Below, in pieces: positions 3,892 through 15,132 of a stretch of DNA of 15,132 nt (its first letter is position 1; each line of letters begins with the position of its first letter). Source of the DNA: a virus (Duplodnaviria > Heunggongvirae > Uroviricota > Caudoviricetes); IMG/VR virus record IMGVR_UViG_2627853771_000002. One strand, written 5' to 3'. Under the pieces are notes generated by a model that made no database searches, was not told the DNA's origin, and saw nothing but the letters and a program-made list of their open reading frames with translations. The position numbers and the translations under genes were made by a program.

Positions 3892-3946
3892 GGTGATGCT
3901 GCCAACTTACTGATTTAGTGTATGATGGTGTTTTTGAGGTGCTCCA

Positions 3947-4222
3947 GTGGCTTCTGTTTCTATCAGCTGTCCCTCCTGTTCAGCTACTGACGGGGTGGTG
4001 CGTAACGGCAAAAGCACCGCCGGACATCAGCGCTATCTCTGCTCTCACTGCCGTAAAACATGGCAACTGCAGTTCACTTACACCGCTTCTCAACCCGGTA
4101 CGCACCAGAAAATCATTGATATGGCCATGAATGGCGTTGGATGCCGGGCAACTGCCCGCATTATGGGCGTTGGCCTCAACACGATTTTACGTCACTTAAA
4201 AAACTCAGGCCGCAGTCGGTAA
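3947..4222 (+). CDS. insA: IS1 InsA
   Basis: 91-aa [43 protein letters not shown]..., recalled as IS1 InsA. Confidence 0.9.
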
Positions 4223-4644
4223 CCTCGCGCATACAGCCGGGCAGTGACGTCATCGTCTGCGCGGAAATGGACGAACAGTGGGGCTATGTCGGGGCTAAAT
4301 CGCGCCAGCGCTGGCTGTTTTACGCGTATGATAGTCTCCGGAAGACGGTTGTTGCGCACGTATTCGGTGAGCGCACTATGGCGACGCTGGGGCGTCTTAT
4401 GAGCCTGCTGTCACCCTTTGACGTGGTGATATGGATGACGGATGGCTGGCCGCTGTATGAATCCCGCCTGAAGGGAAAGCTGCACGTAATCAGCAAGCGA
4501 TATACGCAGCGAATTGAGCGGCATAACCTGAATCTGAGGCAGCACCTGGCACGGCTGGGACGGAAGTCGCTGTCGTTCTCAAAATCGGTGGAGCTGCATG
4601 ACAAAGTCATCGGGCATTATCTGAACATAAAACACTATCAATAA
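4141..4644 (+). CDS. insB: IS1 InsB (expressed as an InsAB' fusion by -1 frameshifting)
   Basis: 167-aa [28 protein letters not shown]... in the -1 frame relative to insA, overlapping its 3' end. Confidence 0.85.
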
Positions 4645-5769
4645 GTTGGAGTCATTACCTAAAGAATCAAGGATTAAACCTGAAATCCTTAATACATCCT
4701 CGGGATGTTCAATGAAAATACGATTGTTATCATGTTCAAGTCCGGCTCTTTTAATTTCATTACCGGTTATTTCATTGATATCAATTGGTAACTGTATGTT
4801 TGAGCGATTCTTCTTGTCATAATAGCGAACCAGCCAGCGGTTTGTTTTTCCTTGGAAAAGAATAGAGTAATAGGACTCTGTATCTTTGGCTTGAAGTTCG
4901 TATGCAGGGCCTATAATAGAACAGATTTTTTCAAATAAAATTCTTTCATTATAGGTTGTTACTATGTTGGGGTTCTCTGCATCGACAATATCTGCGCGCT
5001 CATCAATTACATTATTTTCAGTTACATCAGCAGGGGATTCTAATTCAGGAATAGATGTTCTTGATGAAAGACCAGAAACAACCATTTCACTTACTGACCT
5101 CTCTACGGCCTGCCTCACCAATGGAGTTATTGTTTCTATAAATCTTTGATTTAATTGACGACCAATATTTGCTCGTCCTGCAACATATCTAACAAATTCA
5201 TGATCTACTTCCCGAAGGCTTGTACTCACGACTTTAACAAATGCAGAAATATAAACACTCTCTTCTGCAAGGGTTCTTAGGGCCTCTGGTTTGAATTTGT
5301 CATGGCGGAATCTAAATAATTGCTCAGCATCAGAATCTTTAATGTCATCCATCATGATTCGTAAAAATGGCGTTGAATCCATTATATTTTTTTCATTGAG
5401 ATCCGTAAAAAAGCGCCATTCAATTCCATTAGTAATTGCTGATATTGTCACCTCAGGAGTAGAATTAAAATACCTAGATAATTGAGGACAATGGTTGTCC
5501 ATTTTTTCTTTACAACCTTTGGCCTCAATAAACATAACGGGAACACCTTGGCAGAATAGAGCATAATCTACACGCTCACCCACTTTCACACCAGGGAAGT
5601 CCGCACCATATTCAGCTTTGACTTTTTGCGGATCATATGCGTTAAAGCCTAGGATGTCCAAAAAAGGAAGTATCAAAGCCTGCTTGGTTGTCTCTTCCGT
5701 TGTGCAGTGTTCTCTAACATTTTTAACATGTTCAATGTGATTTTTAAGACGTACTTTGAAGTTTTCCAT
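4579..5769 (-). CDS. Repressor-linked protein with an HsdR-N-like PD-(D/E)xK nuclease N-terminal domain and an uncharacterised C-terminal domain; 3' end replaced by IS1 sequence
   Basis: ATG at 5769 (MENFKVRL...) after GGAGGA. The first 130 aa or so follow the pattern I associate with the type I restriction HsdR N-terminal nuclease fold (D...VDYALF...[10 protein letters not shown]...QLSRY...TNG). Codons 4660-5769 are native; 4579-4659 are read from the IS1 right end. Lies downstream of, and on the same strand as, the repressor gene, inside the operator-bounded immunity region. Confidence 0.6.
4660..4668. repeat. IS1 target-site duplication, right copy (TAAAGAATC)
   Basis: Identical to 3883-3891. 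Confidence 0.85.
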
Positions 5770-5939
5770 GCATCCTCCATGCAAAGTGAAAACCTGCTGT
5801 TAAATCAAAGCAAGTCACAATCCCGGATAGGCTTCATACAAGCCAATCCCCCACAGGGATTGAGTTATGCAAGCGAATCAATCTCAGAGCTTTTAACATG
5901 TATGGAGCTTAGAGATATTGTCCGTTAGACCATATAAGC

Positions 5940-8138: not shown

Positions 8139-8981
8139 ATGAAACTGACTTTACCATTTCCACCGAGCGTAAATAGTTACTGGCGCGCCCCGAGCAAGGG
8201 ACCGCTGAAAGGCAGGCATCTGGTAAGCGAGACAGGGCGCAAGTTCCAGCAGGCAGCGAGAGCGGCGATTATTGAGCAACTGCGGGCCGTTCCCCGGCCA
8301 TCCTCAGATCTGGCCGAGGTTCACATAAACGTTGTTGAGGGCGCGGGGCTTGAGCTTGATCCTGATGATGATTCACAGGTTCTTAAAGCGATTGGTGGCG
8401 GTCGCCTGCTTAATATTGTCACCTTTACTAAGTCAGGGACTTACACTCCAACTAAAGGGACGAAAAGAGTGCGGGTGAAAGTTTGGGGAGCGGGGGGAGG
8501 TGGCCAGAATGCTCCAGTTAGTGTGGGCGCATCTGGAGGTTGTGCTGGTGGATTTTCGGAAGGGTTATTTAATATTTCTGATAACGAAACTATATCTGTG
8601 ACGATAGGTACTGGTGGCAGTGCTGTTGCTGCTGGTGTCTCGTCTAAAGGCGGGAATGGTGGTGATACAAGGTTCGGGAGTTTAATCTCAGCTACTGGAG
8701 GGAGTGGTGGCGGGGCTACAGTTCCTGCTGGAGGTATCGGAAGTGGCGGGAACATTTTAAATATTACTGGCGAAATATCTCAAGGTGGTCTGTATTATGG
8801 TTCTGATGCTTTTATTGGCGGGGCTGGAGGATCTGCATTTTCATCAACGGGTGGCAATGGCCACTTCGGTAGTTCTGGCGATGATGGCGGTTTCCCCGGC
8901 TCAGGTGGTGCCGGGGGGAATGGTAACTATTCATCAGGAAAAGGAGCGAATGGTTTAGTTTACCTTGAAGAGTTTTCCTGA
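8139..8981 (+). CDS. RusA-like N-terminal region fused in frame to a glycine-rich, fibre-like C-terminal region
   Basis: N-terminus MKLTLPFPPSVNSYWR... resembles the RusA resolvase N-terminus (ITLPWPPSNNRYYR), and ...GGGRLLNIVTFT resembles the RusA C-terminus. From about aa 110 the protein is a GGxGG-rich tract of about 170 aa. ATG at 8139 follows AAGGGGG. Confidence 0.5.
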   Translation: MKLTLPFPPSVNSYWRAPSKGPLKGRHLVSETGRKFQQAARAAIIEQLRAVPRPSSDLAEVHINVVEGAGLELDPDDDSQVLKAIGGGRLLNIVTFTKSGTYTPTKGTKRVRVKVWGAGGGGQNAPVSVGASGGCAGGFSEGLFNISDNETISVTIGTGGSAVAAGVSSKGGNGGDTRFGSLISATGGSGGGATVPAGGIGSGGNILNITGEISQGGLYYGSDAFIGGAGGSAFSSTGGNGHFGSSGDDGGFPGSGGAGGNGNYSSGKGANGLVYLEEFS

Positions 8982-10051
8982 TTATTTTTGCTTTGAGCGT
9001 CCGCCCTTATTTTTGCTCTAATTTTAATTAGTGGCTTGTCTATTAATATTACACAAACGATCCCAAGTGCAATTGATATTGGGTAGCCTAATAAAAAGAT
9101 GGATAAGCCACGATTTTCACCACCAATAGCAAGCCATGCTAGAAATCCACCAAAATATTGACAAAGAAAAATTGGATAGGCCAGGTCACCAAACCACTTG
9201 AGTATTTTCTCAAGATGTATGTTTGTCTTTATTTTTAATAATACCAGGGTTGTAAACAATGCTATTACATTATTGGTGTAGTAAAGTATTATGTTGTACT
9301 GACCTAATGGATTAATTGTATATAAATGCCAATTGGTAATAAAAATCCCGATGCAAATAAATGTTATTAAAAAAGCTTTGTGTGGAGAAAGATACATAGC
9401 TTTGAACTTTCTATGGGCAAAATAACCCAGAGAACCCATGCTAAAAGGAAGTGTTGCAGCAAGGAATGGGAAATACGCCATATCAAAAGAATGGTGTACT
9501 ACATATACGTAAGCATGATAAAGCAGTGAAAGCAGAATCGACGTAATGGCTGTAAATTTATTTCGGGCTATGAAAAGCCACAATAAAAAATAACATGTTA
9601 TCTCAACACCCACTGACCATGATGATGTGACTATTCTGAATCTATTACCATCAATAGCAAAGTGATAAATGGATGAAAAGGCACCGAATGGATTTGCTAC
9701 AGCATTATCAGAAAGGAAAGCCCAGGGGAAGATTAAGAGGTTTCCTAATAAATCTCCAGGTAAGAAATTGCCTGTCCAGTTTGAGTGGAATTCCTTTGCG
9801 GATGGAATTAATTTTATAATAAGAAAGCCCATGACGAGAAAAAATATATATGCCGGGAATAACCTCAGTATTCTATTTTTCCAAAACATAGAGAAGTTGA
9901 ACTTGTATGTTTCATGCAAAATGTATGTTATTAAAAAACCACTAATAACATAGAAGCAATTCACTGCAAAGTTGCCAAGTGCAGGTATGCGAGCCGTTAA
10001 GTGAAAAGCAATGACGCACGATGCCAAAAAAAACCTTATTAGGCCAAGCAT
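8960..10051 (-). CDS. Acyltransferase-3 family integral membrane protein (O-antigen O-acetyltransferase-like, Oac/OafA type)
   Basis: 363-aa very hydrophobic ORF with motifs typical of the family (RFFLASCVIAFH, FYVISGFLITY); strongly AT-rich relative to its flanks. Its 3' end overlaps the convergent glycine-rich ORF by about 22 bp. Confidence 0.75.
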   Translation of the reverse strand: MLGLIRFFLASCVIAFHLTARIPALGNFAVNCFYVISGFLITYILHETYKFNFSMFWKNRILRLFPAYIFFLVMGFLIIKLIPSAKEFHSNWTGNFLPGDLLGNLLIFPWAFLSDNAVANPFGAFSSIYHFAIDGNRFRIVTSSWSVGVEITCYFLLWLFIARNKFTAITSILLSLLYHAYVYVVHHSFDMAYFPFLAATLPFSMGSLGYFAHRKFKAMYLSPHKAFLITFICIGIFITNWHLYTINPLGQYNIILYYTNNVIALFTTLVLLKIKTNIHLEKILKWFGDLAYPIFLCQYFGGFLAWLAIGGENRGLSIFLLGYPISIALGIVCVILIDKPLIKIRAKIRADAQSKNNQENSSR

Positions 10052-10314
10052 TATTTTATCTCCGCGCCAATATCGCGCATTTTATTTATTACATTGTTAA
10101 GTTGCTCATCAGACAGAACAAGCTGAGCTGCAATATAAAACAGTATGTGTCTTGACATTACCCTGGGGCTCTCTCCGCCAGTGTATTTCCGCCATTGGCT
10201 ATCGCTGGCTACACCTGCGAGCCCTGCCATTTGGTTTCCGGAGTAATTTAGTGCGGATTTCAGTCTGGCTAAATCTTCCTGCGTTGGAGGGGTGTATTTA
10301 TTTATTAAAATCAT
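10051..10314 (-). CDS. Small XRE-type HTH protein co-transcribed with the acyltransferase
   Basis: 87 aa from the ATG at 10314 (track ORF starts at a GTG at 10338). HTH-like segment LARLKSALNYSGNQMAGLAGVASDSQWRKYTGGESPR. Its stop overlaps the acyltransferase start (TAATG). Confidence 0.5.
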   Translation of the reverse strand: MILINKYTPPTQEDLARLKSALNYSGNQMAGLAGVASDSQWRKYTGGESPRVMSRHILFYIAAQLVLSDEQLNNVINKMRDIGAEIK

Positions 10315-10415
10315 TCTCTTATTTAACCGTTTAAACACGTAAGGCGATGTTAGCCCTGAAGGGGCGGGGCGTCAATCTTAATTGCTTCATTGAAAAGATG
10401 AAGACAGGAACAGGT

Positions 10416-12410
10416 ATGGACAAAAGATATAATACCGGCAATCCAAGACCTTCAAATAGCATGAAGGATCTGAATGATAACGCCCTGGCGTACGATGATT
10501 TCCTGAACAGCGAAAGCGATACTTTTATAGATCGTTTTGGTAACGCCCAGGATACGATAATTGGGGCTACTAAAAAAATGGCAGCTGCTACCGACGCTGT
10601 TATTGATGAAGCCCGCCAAAACCTGATCCCTCTCAGCCGGCAGTACATGACGCTGGCGGCGGCGCAGGCGGATATTGCGAATATTCCGGCAGGTTCAACA
10701 ACCTATGTCCGCAGTCAGGACGGAAGCTCTCTGGCCGATGAGTATATCAACCTCGCTGGAACGCTGCAGCCAACCGGACGGCGGATGGTTCGTGACGACT
10801 ACGCATACCAGGTATCGCCAGACAGCGTGACCCTGGCAGCATATGATCCGGAGACTTCCCGCGTGGCTCCATTTTTAAATACAAGCGGCAGATTAATTCA
10901 AATCGGTCCTGACGGAAAATATTACGAACTTTTAACCCAACAAGAATCCGAACTCTATGCGCTGGGCCGGGAGGGTTCTATACCGCAGTTTATTGGCGGT
11001 GAAAAAGTGTGGCGGATGACGGTTGATTCAACCACAAACCAGATCGTTGAAGCTTATACGGTTGGTGGGAAGCACTGGATTTACTCAGACGGTGGCCTGG
11101 TAGCTGTTAATAACGGAAATGGCGGTGGTGGTGGCGACGATGATGCCAACCAGCTCCCTGAGTATGGACTTCATTTGTCAGGGTCTACTGTGTACCCCTA
11201 CTCAGAGACAGTGCCTGTATGTTTTATCTTTGTGACTGCTGGGCAATCCAACGCTCGAGGATATTGTCCTGACGCCGATCAAACCATTGTCGCAGCAACG
11301 CCGATATATCCTGATAACGCTTTCATGCTCAGCGGCGGGGTTAGGCGTACAGGGACACGCAGCACTACTCTGGTGCCACTGGTTGAGGCAGTAAGTGGGA
11401 CAGATAAAGAAACGGCCGCAAGCGGCCTCGCGAACACCTTCATTCGCGATATGGCTGCAGCTACCGGAATCATGCCGCGCACGCTATCAATCGTATGTGC
11501 GCAGTCTGGTCAGGCTTACGAGTACCAGAAACGGGGTAACCAGGTATATCAGTATCTGCTCGATTCAATCGAAGACTGCGTAACGGCCTGTAAAGCACGC
11601 GGCTGGCTGCCGATTGTTCTCTGCGTTGACTGGATGCAGGGAGAGTCCGACGAGGACTGGTCAGGATTACGAGAAGGAATGTATGAATCACGGATGAGGC
11701 AGTACCAGAGACAAATCACCAGCGACATCATCGCAAGAACGGGTCAAAACGAACCGCCGATTATCGCCATTACCCAGCTGGGGTATGTCAATGACGGGCA
11801 TGGTGCATTTACAGGCCAGTACGCGCGACTGGCGTCGACGCGATTGCACGGAAAAGAGCAATTCAGGCTGGTCAATAGTTTGTACCAGTACGATTTTATT
11901 TCAGACGGTCTGCACTTGACGTGTGCGGGCCAGAACCGGCGCGGAGCAGCTGTGGCGAGAGCGCTTCTCCAGGAGTGGTTTACGAGCGGCTGGTCAGGGA
12001 TGGTTCCGACCAGTTTCGTGTGGAACTCACCCACGCAGATACAAATCAATGTCCCAGCGTATACGAACCTGGTGCTGGACACGACTACGATCAACACCTC
12101 CGGTCTGGCCAATTACGGCTTTAGCTACACGGATGAGACTGGTGCTCCACCTGCTATATCGAGCATCGCGATCAGCTCGGACGGCAAGGGCGTGCTGATT
12201 AACCTGGCGACCGCCCCCTCTGGACGTTTTGGGCGCGTTTCCTATGCGACAGCAGAAAACCCACTTCAGAGCGGCGCATCTGTAAAACCTTCCGGGCGGA
12301 CTCTTGGTGCAAGAGGGTGTGTTCGATCTTCCGCTGGAATCATATGGGTGTATGACACATCCGTGACTCTTTACGACTGGCTCCCCGCTTTTCGTATTAA
12401 CGTTTTCTGA
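10416..12410 (+). CDS. Tail-fibre/tailspike-like protein with an internal SGNH/SASA-type carbohydrate esterase domain
   Basis: Esterase block motifs in order: GQSN (VTAGQSNARGY, nt about 11241-11252), QGESD (DWMQGESDED, nt about 11631-11651) and DxxH (SDGLHLT, nt about 11904-11918). A Gly/Asp linker (NGNGGGGGDDD) precedes the domain. Start taken as the ATG at 10416 (AGGAACAGG upstream); the maximal ORF begins at 10347. Confidence 0.55.
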   Translation: MDKRYNTGNPRPSNSMKDLNDNALAYDDFLNSESDTFIDRFGNAQDTIIGATKKMAAATDAVIDEARQNLIPLSRQYMTLAAAQADIANIPAGSTTYVRSQDGSSLADEYINLAGTLQPTGRRMVRDDYAYQVSPDSVTLAAYDPETSRVAPFLNTSGRLIQIGPDGKYYELLTQQESELYALGREGSIPQFIGGEKVWRMTVDSTTNQIVEAYTVGGKHWIYSDGGLVAVNNGNGGGGGDDDANQLPEYGLHLSGSTVYPYSETVPVCFIFVTAGQSNARGYCPDADQTIVAATPIYPDNAFMLSGGVRRTGTRSTTLVPLVEAVSGTDKETAASGLANTFIRDMAAATGIMPRTLSIVCAQSGQAYEYQKRGNQVYQYLLDSIEDCVTACKARGWLPIVLCVDWMQGESDEDWSGLREGMYESRMRQYQRQITSDIIARTGQNEPPIIAITQLGYVNDGHGAFTGQYARLASTRLHGKEQFRLVNSLYQYDFISDGLHLTCAGQNRRGAAVARALLQEWFTSGWSGMVPTSFVWNSPTQIQINVPAYTNLVLDTTTINTSGLANYGFSYTDETGAPPAISSIAISSDGKGVLINLATAPSGRFGRVSYATAENPLQSGASVKPSGRTLGARGCVRSSAGIIWVYDTSVTLYDWLPAFRINVF

Positions 12411-13490: not shown

Positions 13491-13913
13491 TTGTTCGTGA
13501 ACGGTAAGAAAACAATAAGTTTTGAGCAATTTTTAACTATTAACAGCAATCTTGTTTCCATCTCAGATACATGGGCTGACTTGTGGGCGTTAATTTTTCA
13601 CACGGGTTTAAGCGCTGGAAGGCTGCTGAGTATTCGATATGATGATATTGATGGTGACTTGATACTGATACGAAAACAGGGTCACCTGAAGGAGCTACGT
13701 GTTAAATCAACCCCTCCAGTGGAGGGGATCATTGCTCGTAGAAGAGAACGCTATCCAGAAGATGTTTTTTTATTTCAGAGCCATTCTAACCGTGTGAAGT
13801 ACCAATGCCGGCCGGTCACTATAATTGCTTTCAACGCCGCTTTACGTCGCGCCGCTAGATCATTACCAGACGTTAACGTAAGCAGTAGTAGCGCGAGAAA
13901 CATACCGGACTAA
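13491..13913 (+). pseudogene. FimB/FimE-like small tyrosine recombinase remnant, C-terminally truncated and degenerate
   Basis: Box-I-like region LWALIFHTGLSAGRLLSIRYDDIDGDLILIRKQG parallels FimB/FimE, but the catalytic Arg position is Ser and the His/Arg/Tyr C-terminal motifs are absent. No ATG start (TTG/GTG only). Confidence 0.4.
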
Positions 13914-14739: not shown

Positions 14740-15132
14740 ATGTCTCAACGCAGGAAGGCGATGAGCTCACGTTCCAGTTATACAACCCAAACGGAGGGCT
14801 ATAACGTGGGATTTCCGTCGCCAGCTGCTGACTATGTTGAACGGCGTCTGACCGTTGATTCACTCTGCGGTACCGGCCCCAATACTCGGATAGTACAAAC
14901 AGAAACCGGCTATGCCGTAGTGGATTGCTTCGTAAAACCAAAGCAAGGAGATACCGTTTTAATTCAATACGGCGGCGGCACTGATTTTGCAAAAATTATG
15001 GGCCGGGCATTTATTACACGAGACGGTGAAGCGTTGGAAGGTGAGGCCCTGGATGATGTTACAGTTGTCGGGGTAGTGACATTCGTTATCAATCGGATAG
15101 GGAAGGATGATGATGATTATCCAGTAATATGA
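14740..15132 (+). CDS. UmuD-like (peptidase S24-like) protein, apparently lacking the catalytic serine and the Cys/Ala-Gly cleavage site
   Basis: GFPSPAADYVERR matches the conserved UmuD/MucA/RumA segment and the C-terminus (DDVTVVGVVTFVI) matches UmuD (LDVFGVVIHVV). Where those proteins have GDSM/GSSM, this one has GYAV, and VG replaces CG/AG before FPSPAADY. An alternative start is the ATG at 14761 (AGGAAGG upstream). The stop TGA at 15130-15132 overlaps an ATG at 15129. Confidence 0.7.
   Translation: MSQRRKAMSSRSSYTTQTEGYNVGFPSPAADYVERRLTVDSLCGTGPNTRIVQTETGYAVVDCFVKPKQGDTVLIQYGGGTDFAKIMGRAFITRDGEALEGEALDDVTVVGVVTFVINRIGKDDDDYPVI

Follow-up and report, generated by a model that had tools for sequence, protein, structure and literature searches.

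Two adjoining minus-strand genes at positions 8960 to 10314 of IMG/VR virus record IMGVR_UViG_2627853771_000002 (a 15,132-nucleotide [nt] stretch of DNA, analysed at full length and referred to here as the window) probably form a lysogenic-conversion operon in the tail-fibre region of a degraded prophage related to Serratia phage BZS1. The upstream gene encodes a small helix-turn-helix (HTH) protein that would control the downstream gene, which encodes a membrane protein of the acyltransferase-3 (AT3) family predicted to modify a surface polysaccharide. On balance we also lean towards a broader reading, in which the HTH protein and its palindromic promoter make up a portable, self-limiting module for interchangeable envelope cargo, with a recognition code at HTH residue 39 and with the cargo tied to the tip of the tail fibre. 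The cassette has the following features.

8960 to 10051, minus strand: acyltransferase gene, 363 amino acids (aa), 35.2% GC, RefSeq WP_000901073.
10049 to 10053, minus strand: TAATG stop/start overlap, read from the sequence, with a GGAG Shine-Dalgarno sequence at 10063 to 10060.
10051 to 10314, minus strand: HTH gene, 87 aa, phrog_20491, RefSeq WP_024186701, stop codon at 10053 to 10051.
10347 to 10375, minus strand: sigma-70-like promoter from a promoter scan, with TTGACG (10375 to 10370), a 17-nt spacer and TAACAT (10352 to 10347).
10351 to 10367, minus strand: degenerate operator-like palindrome CCGCCC-cttca-GGGCTA filling the promoter spacer, with a perfect right half-site and a left half-site matching at 4 of 6 positions; its final TA also opens the -10 hexamer.

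The two genes share a single base, the final A of the HTH stop codon being the A of the acyltransferase ATG, and the GGAG Shine-Dalgarno sequence lies 8 nt upstream of this start. The translational coupling claimed in the original prediction, which had been made from the letters of the window, can be seen directly at 10053 to 10049. That prediction opened the small reading frame at a GTG at 10338 (10051 to 10338, 95 aa); we place the start at the ATG at 10314 (87 aa) because all 30 aligned homologues begin with M-x-L-I at this position and the RefSeq annotation agrees. The promoter scan found no promoter-like site between the HTH and acyltransferase genes.

From its sequence and predicted structure, the 363-aa protein is an intact AT3-only acyltransferase. 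Residues 4 to 336 match positions 6 to 323 of the 326-position Pfam profile PF01757 (57.1 bits against a cut-off of 31; E = 2e-15), and the protein also matches phrog_3333, annotated "O-acetyltransferase" (E = 5.8e-22). Bacterial AT3 acetyltransferases are defined by an R/K-X10-H motif in transmembrane helix 1, an FFXISG-type motif in helix 2 and an RXXR motif (Pearson et al., PMC7448272). The corresponding residues here are R6-X10-H17, F33YVISG38 and R60ILR63; the protein also carries W145...E150, and conservation of all these residues is complete or nearly so. Among 35 homologues from Lonsdalea, Pantoea, Klebsiella, Sodalis, Serratia, Pseudomonas and a Legionella metagenome-assembled genome, F33, S37, R60 and R63 are invariant and R6, H17 and G38 are at least 90% conserved. 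The AlphaFold2 (AF2) model (predicted local distance difference test [pLDDT] score, 94.8) contains approximately 10 long membrane helices and short re-entrant ones, in agreement with a hydropathy scan; the protein has no second Pfam domain, no 11th helix and no fused SGNH domain. Together, these results uphold the predicted assignment to the acyltransferase-3 family.

Comparison with Oac gave no full-length relationship to a characterized Oac. An hhalign alignment to Oac of phage Sf6 covered 139 N-terminal columns only (22% identity, probability 95.6%), within which the AT3 motifs align, and a tblastn search of 50,697 phage records returned three matches, the best of them 28% identical (a Vibrio phage) and none to an Oac phage. 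Judged by these alignments, the window enzyme and Oac are not orthologues. Searching the PDB with a profile of the AT3 alignment gave no match, and Foldseek comparison of the model with the PDB and BFVD returned no informative match because no solved AT3 structure was among those searched.

The HTH protein falls in phrog_20491 ("unknown function," E = 2e-30) and has 87 detectable homologues at 55 to 72% identity. An invariant QWRKYTGG..PR segment marks the predicted recognition helix of the family, which in the window protein spans residues 38 to 45 (SDSQWRKY). No Pfam model reached its threshold (HTH_31 scored 14.6 bits against a cut-off of 27, with sub-threshold matches in 21 of 30 family members), and a PDB profile search with the protein gave only matches with E values of at least 0.08. 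The best AF2 model (pLDDT, 88) has five helices, the other four models scoring 56 to 65. Its top Foldseek matches in the PDB were weak (E of at least 0.02) and all of the XRE type, comprising the HTH domain of AcrIF24, Aca10, Aca1, HigA, regulators of phages 186 and lambda, and C.AhdI. The model points to a probable XRE-like HTH fold, in line with the XRE-type partner that had been predicted.

To place the cassette among its relatives, we assembled 80 loci from one-genome-per-species contigs and 80 IMG/VR viral contigs, plus isolated phages and plasmids. The number of promoter-like sites in the cassette region is not above chance; the site upstream of the HTH gene is in register with 43 distinct promoters of the HTH family. 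These lie upstream of the HTH gene, or of p26 (a gene for a small membrane protein) where it is present, and share the consensus TTGACA - N2 - TAGCNC - N5 - GNGCTA - ttaT. In this consensus a 17-bp palindrome (site TAGCACCAAAGGGGCTA) fills the 17-nt spacer, and its closing TA starts the -10 hexamer. The strict core TAGCNC-N5-GNGCTA occurs at -420 to -40 in 42 of the 80 genome loci, against an expectation of 0.013 per locus calculated from the density of the core elsewhere within the same loci.

Some relatives carry variant palindromes. In these, both half-sites change together and track the residue that precedes QWRKY (S39 in the window), which is the second residue of the predicted recognition helix, as follows.

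S, N or Q before QWRKY: C / C at operator base 4, in 42 of 43 distinct locus pairs.
R before QWRKY: G / G at operator base 4, in 7 of 7 distinct locus pairs.
H or E before QWRKY: A / A at operator base 4, in 4 of 4 distinct locus pairs.

The R class occurs in Pseudomonas-type and Burkholderia-type backgrounds and the H/E class in Burkholderia-type and Rouxiella-type backgrounds, at least two for each class, and the association between residue 39 and base 4 is reproduced in the IMG/VR viral contigs. Because residue 39 covaries with operator base 4, there is good computational evidence that the HTH protein binds the palindrome as a dimer; autorepression is its most likely role, since the palindrome is flanked by -35 and -10 hexamers close to the consensus.

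Two other elements were considered as operators and rejected. A GC-rich hairpin followed by a T-run (AGCCCC-N4-GGGGCT), which lies between p26 and the HTH gene in relatives, was set aside as a second operator because its spacing is one base longer and because no covariation of its stem with operator class is seen in Pseudomonas loci. This hairpin, which the window lacks, resembles an intrinsic terminator or attenuator. The palindrome GTTTAAAC, downstream of the window's -10 hexamer, is conserved in no relative. A 105-aa open reading frame (ORF; 10331 to 10648, minus strand) overlaps the cassette promoter and runs antisense in the 5' end of the adjacent tail-protein gene; it is most likely not a gene, and it recurs in relatives because the underlying DNA is conserved.

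Within E. coli, three alleles occupy one site in prophages with near-identical baseplate genes. Locus L110 matches the window from 10714 to 10064, where the HTH gene ends, and the match picks up again at 8503, a point inside the fibre gene; in place of the acyltransferase and the last approximately 150 fibre codons it has a DUF1796 gene and a different fibre C terminus. The match of locus L105 covers 10341 to 10044 and restarts at 8466, and this locus has a different, 355-aa AT3 protein and a third fibre C terminus. The HTH protein is 95 to 100% identical across these swaps. These homology breaks indicate that cargo and fibre tip are exchanged as a unit, the promoter and HTH gene being the conserved backbone as far as can be read from the alignments. 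Such linkage fits a receptor-modifying, superinfection-excluding role for the cargo; it could also arise from contiguous mosaic exchange alone. The L110 cargo (1383 to 2270) is a 295-aa protein with DUF4214 and DUF1796 regions ("putative papain-like cysteine peptidase"), and the HTH protein upstream of it is 95% identical to that of the window.

The distinction between backbone and cargo also explains the composition step inside the segment 8960 to 10338, all of which had been predicted to be an AT-rich moron switching abruptly to GC-rich flanks at both ends. The acyltransferase gene answers to that description, being the lowest-GC 1,092-bp stretch in the window (35.2%; window mean, 47.5%; standard deviation, 5.2%), ahead of 4674 to 5765 (37.1%). 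GC stands at 44% in the HTH gene and intergenic region and at 48% over the opening 300 nt of the next gene; the HTH gene, behind which cargo genes are swapped, belongs to the conserved backbone and not to the AT-rich element. Of the two boundaries, the left is sharp as predicted (GC in 40-bp windows drops from 0.55 to 0.70 to 0.38 between approximately 8900 and 8960; maximum-likelihood change point, 8918), while the right is gradual, with its best change point at 10160, inside the HTH gene, rather than at 10338. The flanks, at 52 to 53% GC, are ordinary for E. coli. As for the traits of a moron, deviant composition is confined to the acyltransferase gene (35% versus 47 to 52%), the promoter-like site lies upstream of the HTH gene and not directly before the acyltransferase gene, and allelic replacement is present, with another AT3 gene (L105) or the DUF1796 gene (L110) at the same site.

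Across the related loci, the gene behind the HTH gene lies on the same strand, has low GC and as a rule begins only a few bases from the HTH stop codon; a junction as tight as that of the window (-10 to +13 nt) is also seen in relatives with other cargo. It encodes members of several AT3 subfamilies, hexapeptide-repeat acetyltransferases, glycosyltransferases of families GT2, GT4 and GT25, Wzy_C proteins, the DUF1796/DUF4214 protein or one of several unassigned, often membrane, proteins. An E. coli phage-plasmid carries the HTH gene, a hexapeptide acetyltransferase gene and a gene annotated "LPS N-acetylglucosaminyltransferase" (LPS, lipopolysaccharide) beside a holin gene, and lambdoid prophages of Klebsiella and Pantoea have just the p26-HTH pair, without cargo, in the interval from Q to the holin gene. 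NCBIfam and PADLOC hold no model for the HTH protein, p26, the acyltransferase or the unassigned cargo, and PADLOC found no link between known defence systems and the cassette or its related proteins.

The p26 protein (phrog_6330; BZS1 p26, locus L093, 5790 to 5963) has 56 to 60 aa, an N-terminal coiled-coil-like helix and a C-terminal membrane anchor. Its gene is found in L003, L006, L031 and most Enterobacterales loci approximately 38 nt upstream of the HTH gene, with a conserved leader (CACATGAGGTAGCGGAAAGGCCGCAGCCCGAACCCGAAAGGA) before it and the terminator-like hairpin (AGCCCCGAAAGGGGCTTTTT) after it, just before the HTH start. In the window, p26, leader and hairpin are deleted, as they are in Serratia liquefaciens, Lonsdalea and Citrobacter loci. 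The p26-HTH(-cargo) module always opposes a late operon (L003, L006 to L009 [Pantoea/Klebsiella], L093, L094 and L098), sitting in the Q-holin interval of lambdoid prophages, in the tail operon of BZS1-like phages and beside the holin gene of the phage-plasmid. Late transcription must consequently cross the module antisense, which could cause interference between the lysogenic and lytic programmes.

The window itself is identified by its sequence as E. coli chromosome. E. coli HS and ten other complete genomes carry an exact copy (100% identity) of the 2-kb stretch around the cassette, and 31 E. coli genomes carry it at 95% identity or more. Around the cassette, the following features define the prophage.

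8139 to 8981, plus strand: RusA/fibre fusion ORF, the start of RusA joined to a glycine-rich tail-fibre C-terminal domain.
8933 to 8982, no strand assigned: inverted repeat of 10 nt, ATCAGGAAAA / TTTTCCTGAT, with a 30-nt loop, spanning the convergent fibre and acyltransferase 3' ends.
10416 to 12410, plus strand: distal tail protein with a SASA/SGNH-type acetylesterase domain, 664 aa from the annotated start, divergent from the cassette.

The cassette lies just past the fusion, and the final 22 nt of the fibre gene overlap the 3' end of the acyltransferase gene, the two genes being convergent. In the fusion ORF, the PHROG family for RusA matches residues 1 to 63 and that for tail fibres residues 81 to 280, and Pfam Gly_rich_2 is also matched. 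E. coli HS has the corresponding fibre in intact form (261 aa), behind terminase, portal and Mu-type baseplate genes. The fusion seen here and the intact fibre behind baseplate genes in HS point to a single deletion in the window prophage. The fusion is accordingly read as a deletion scar that joins the first approximately 63 RusA codons to the fibre C-terminal domain, and the lost segment, on this comparison, is the whole Q, lysis, packaging, head and tail region, everything between rusA and the fibre tip. On the other side, the distal tail protein matches Pfam SASA (E = 2e-11) and phrog_4201, a tail-fibre family (E = 2e-66), and is a homologue of the BZS1 virion protein p27. The locus is syntenic with BZS1 p23 to p28 and is best described as the remnant of a BZS1-like myovirus prophage with a Mu-type baseplate, located at a tRNA-Ser gene in E. 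coli.

Several further observations concern the same region. The fibre domain at 8300 to 8900 has a strongly positive GC skew (0.25 to 0.41) and a negative AT skew, owing to runs of GGN glycine codons on the plus strand and not to a replication signal. The distal tail protein (10416 to 12410 in the window, 6717 to 8828 in L096 and 6717 to 8597 in L097) keeps its N-terminal approximately 100 residues while its C-terminal domain is swapped; SASA, TolB-like and SGNH/GDSL variants occur in otherwise identical prophages, each followed by a different partner protein of approximately 260 aa. The left part of the window holds, in order, mtfA, the tRNA-Ser gene (892 to 978; the sole match in an Rfam scan of the window), a phage integrase gene and a ParB-like gene; then come IS1 inside a restriction-enzyme-like gene, early regulators of the RacR/YdaS/YmfL type and a Dam methylase gene. 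IS1 (approximately 3900 to 4650, with InsA/InsB-like ORFs at 3947 to 4222 and 4141 to 4644) splits a 37%-GC gene at 4579 to 5784 that RefSeq labels "type I restriction endonuclease" and that forms the second-lowest-GC stretch of the window. On the right, a 140-aa fragment at 13491 to 13913 (RefSeq site-specific integrase) precedes a frameshifted "DNA polymerase V" remnant, and an S24-peptidase gene lies at the far end of the prophage remnant (14740 to 15132 region), just before the chromosomal gene yodB.

Under the operon model, the sigma-70 promoter (10375 to 10347) would transcribe the HTH gene against the direction of the phage late genes, and translation would pass through the TAATG overlap into the AT3-only, inner-membrane acyltransferase. 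We infer that the HTH protein binds DNA and represses, acting as a dimeric autorepressor on the 17-bp palindrome in its own promoter spacer; autorepression would keep a polytopic membrane enzyme at a steady, non-toxic level if the operon is, as we suppose, expressed in the lysogen. The enzyme would then acylate a surface polysaccharide with a group carried across the membrane, most likely an acetyl donated by acetyl-CoA in the cytoplasm. We infer the acceptor to be O-antigen, most likely that bound by the phage's own tail fibre, and its modification would alter the receptor or serotype and so block superinfection. The proposal that the cassette serves lysogenic conversion draws support from its prophage context and from its convergence with a tail-fibre gene, as in Sf6 oac, and the glycan-enzyme cargo behind the same HTH gene elsewhere (AT3, hexapeptide, GT2/GT4/GT25 and Wzy_C proteins) counts towards a role at surface glycans.

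The choice of acceptor and the purpose of the modification can be read in other ways. The acyltransferase might act on enterobacterial common antigen, colanic acid or capsule, osmoregulated periplasmic glucans, or lipid A or core, with a benefit unrelated to exclusion. We regard this as a real possibility, if one we would not favour. AT3-only proteins act on many substrates (review, PMC9558356), this one has no close characterized relative (28% for the best match in the phage collection, and no NCBIfam model), and the cassette is present in strains labelled O9. Against such a target, the characterized phage-borne AT3-only enzymes covered in the same review all act on O-antigen (PMC9558356), and both the co-exchange with the fibre tip and the sister cargo (Wzy_C, GT25 "LPS biosynthesis" and "lipopolysaccharide N-acetylglucosaminyltransferase" proteins) point to LPS. 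Alternatively, the acyltransferase could add the very group that the neighbouring SASA virion esterase (10416 to 12410) removes at adsorption. The two genes are adjacent and divergent, the tail protein's BZS1 homologue, p27, is a virion component, and an O-antigen acetylase/deacetylase pair was raised as a speculation by the BZS1 authors (PMC7556043). Yet the acyltransferase (99.2% identical) and the fibre allele WP_001310746 adjoin any of three distal tail proteins, of the SASA, TolB-like or SGNH/GDSL type, which means that the esterase is not an obligatory partner. The acyltransferase covaries with the glycine-rich fibre tip instead, and acetylating a group that a phage esterase needs would not obviously exclude that phage. 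We consider a matched pair unlikely.

Other doubts concern the regulator and whether the operon functions at all, and here several observations weigh against the operon model. The window has an operator degenerate in its left half (4/6), a weak -10 hexamer (TAACAT) and a weak ribosome-binding site for the HTH gene. Taken alone, the palindrome is not above chance (2 matches with at most two mismatches in the window versus 5.2 expected), so it is called an operator because of its register with the two promoter hexamers and its homology to sites in relatives. The p26 gene and hairpin of most relatives are deleted here, and regulation in the window may for that reason differ from the family norm. 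No convincing intrinsic terminator was found at 8933 to 8982 or after the acyltransferase gene. The likeness to Oac, at approximately 22% over the N-terminal third only, leaves the sequence pointing to no particular sugar or polymer; some cargo has no glycan-related domain, and about half of the HTH-family loci have no identifiable cargo. Since the prophage is defective, any benefit through exclusion of its own phage type would be historical at best. These cargo-free loci, above all the p26-HTH pairs between Q and holin genes, and the frequent abutment of the module on lysis genes suit a different account, in which the HTH protein (normally with p26) is an independent lysis or superinfection-control module and the acyltransferase landed in a recombination-prone site downstream; the GC difference between HTH gene (44%) and cargo (35%) is in its favour as well. 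We find this account improbable: cargo, where present, shares the strand of the HTH gene in every case and begins -10 to +60 nt from its stop codon, with a 1-nt overlap here, no separate promoter-like site lies between the two genes, and a repressor of the only upstream promoter necessarily controls the co-transcribed cargo. It is very unlikely, finally, that the cassette is an inert relic, unexpressed or non-functional and kept only through a recent prophage-destroying deletion. The loss of everything between rusA and the fibre tip, the degenerate operator and -10 hexamer and the missing p26 are compatible with decay, and E. coli copies differ by only 0 to 2 codons, too few for a selection test on nonsynonymous and synonymous rates (dN/dS). 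Both frames are, however, intact in 31 of 31 near-identical copies, including the fuller prophages (HS), the catalytic motifs are all retained and the promoter still occupies its conserved position.

Phage-borne O-antigen modification alters serotype, vaccine epitopes and phage susceptibility. Commensal and environmental E. coli strains carry the cassette, the reference commensal HS among them, and under the operon model it would give these strains an uncharted surface modification. Elements of this kind are well known; the more useful by-product is the regulator-operator pair with its apparent one-residue, one-base code, which, with the conserved promoter, could serve as a search handle for conversion cargo of unknown function in prophages. 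If the module reading is true, the module serves temperate phages and phage-plasmids across Enterobacterales, Pseudomonas and Burkholderiales, always antisense to the late operon, and co-exchange with the fibre tip ties each receptor specificity to its own receptor-modifying enzyme.

Among known systems, the closest is Serratia phage BZS1, a related myovirus with a Mu-type baseplate. Its fibre gene p23 is followed on the opposite strand by the AT3 gene p24, the HTH gene p25 and p26, and then by the esterase-domain tail-protein gene p27 and p28; p25 is 67% identical to the window HTH protein, and p26 is a 57-aa, C-terminally anchored membrane protein. The window differs in lacking p26, the conserved leader and the p26-HTH hairpin, and its acyltransferase and p24 belong to different AT3 subfamilies (18% identity). 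Both p27 and p28 were found in the BZS1 virion by mass spectrometry (Bujak et al. 2020, PMC7556043), and p25-p26 pairs in Serratia always adjoin an acetyltransferase (PMC7556043). The arrangement in the window has thus already been described in a homologous phage, in silico and without experiments. The BZS1 paper assigned no function to p25 or p26 ("we have no clue"), and it contains no description of the promoter or operator (PMC7556043). As far as the literature we searched shows, the regulator-operator pair as a common front end for interchangeable envelope-modifying cargo has not been described before.

With Sf6 Oac (OacA) and other phage AT3-only O-antigen acetyltransferases, the window protein shares the AT3-only architecture and the R/K-X10-H, FxxISG and RXXR motifs. 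In Sf6, oac is convergent with the tailspike gene at the end of the late region, just as the window gene is with the fibre gene, a position typical of serotype-converting genes. The differences are that only the N-terminal approximately 140 residues of Oac align (22% identity) and that the Sf6 record has no HTH gene between oac and its annotated promoter.

The regulatory half of the cassette recalls the C proteins of restriction-modification systems and the Aca autorepressors, which are small HTH proteins of XRE fold, encoded in one operon with an effector that may be harmful or variable. Each binds its own promoter at an inverted repeat, and in the case of C proteins the regulator gene lies ahead of the effector gene and overlaps it. 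Consistent with this likeness, the best Foldseek matches of the window HTH protein include Aca1, Aca10, the AcrIF24 HTH domain and C.AhdI. The window protein has no significant sequence membership in these families, its operator sequence is a different one, and the cargo that it would control consists of envelope-glycan enzymes rather than nucleases or anti-CRISPRs.

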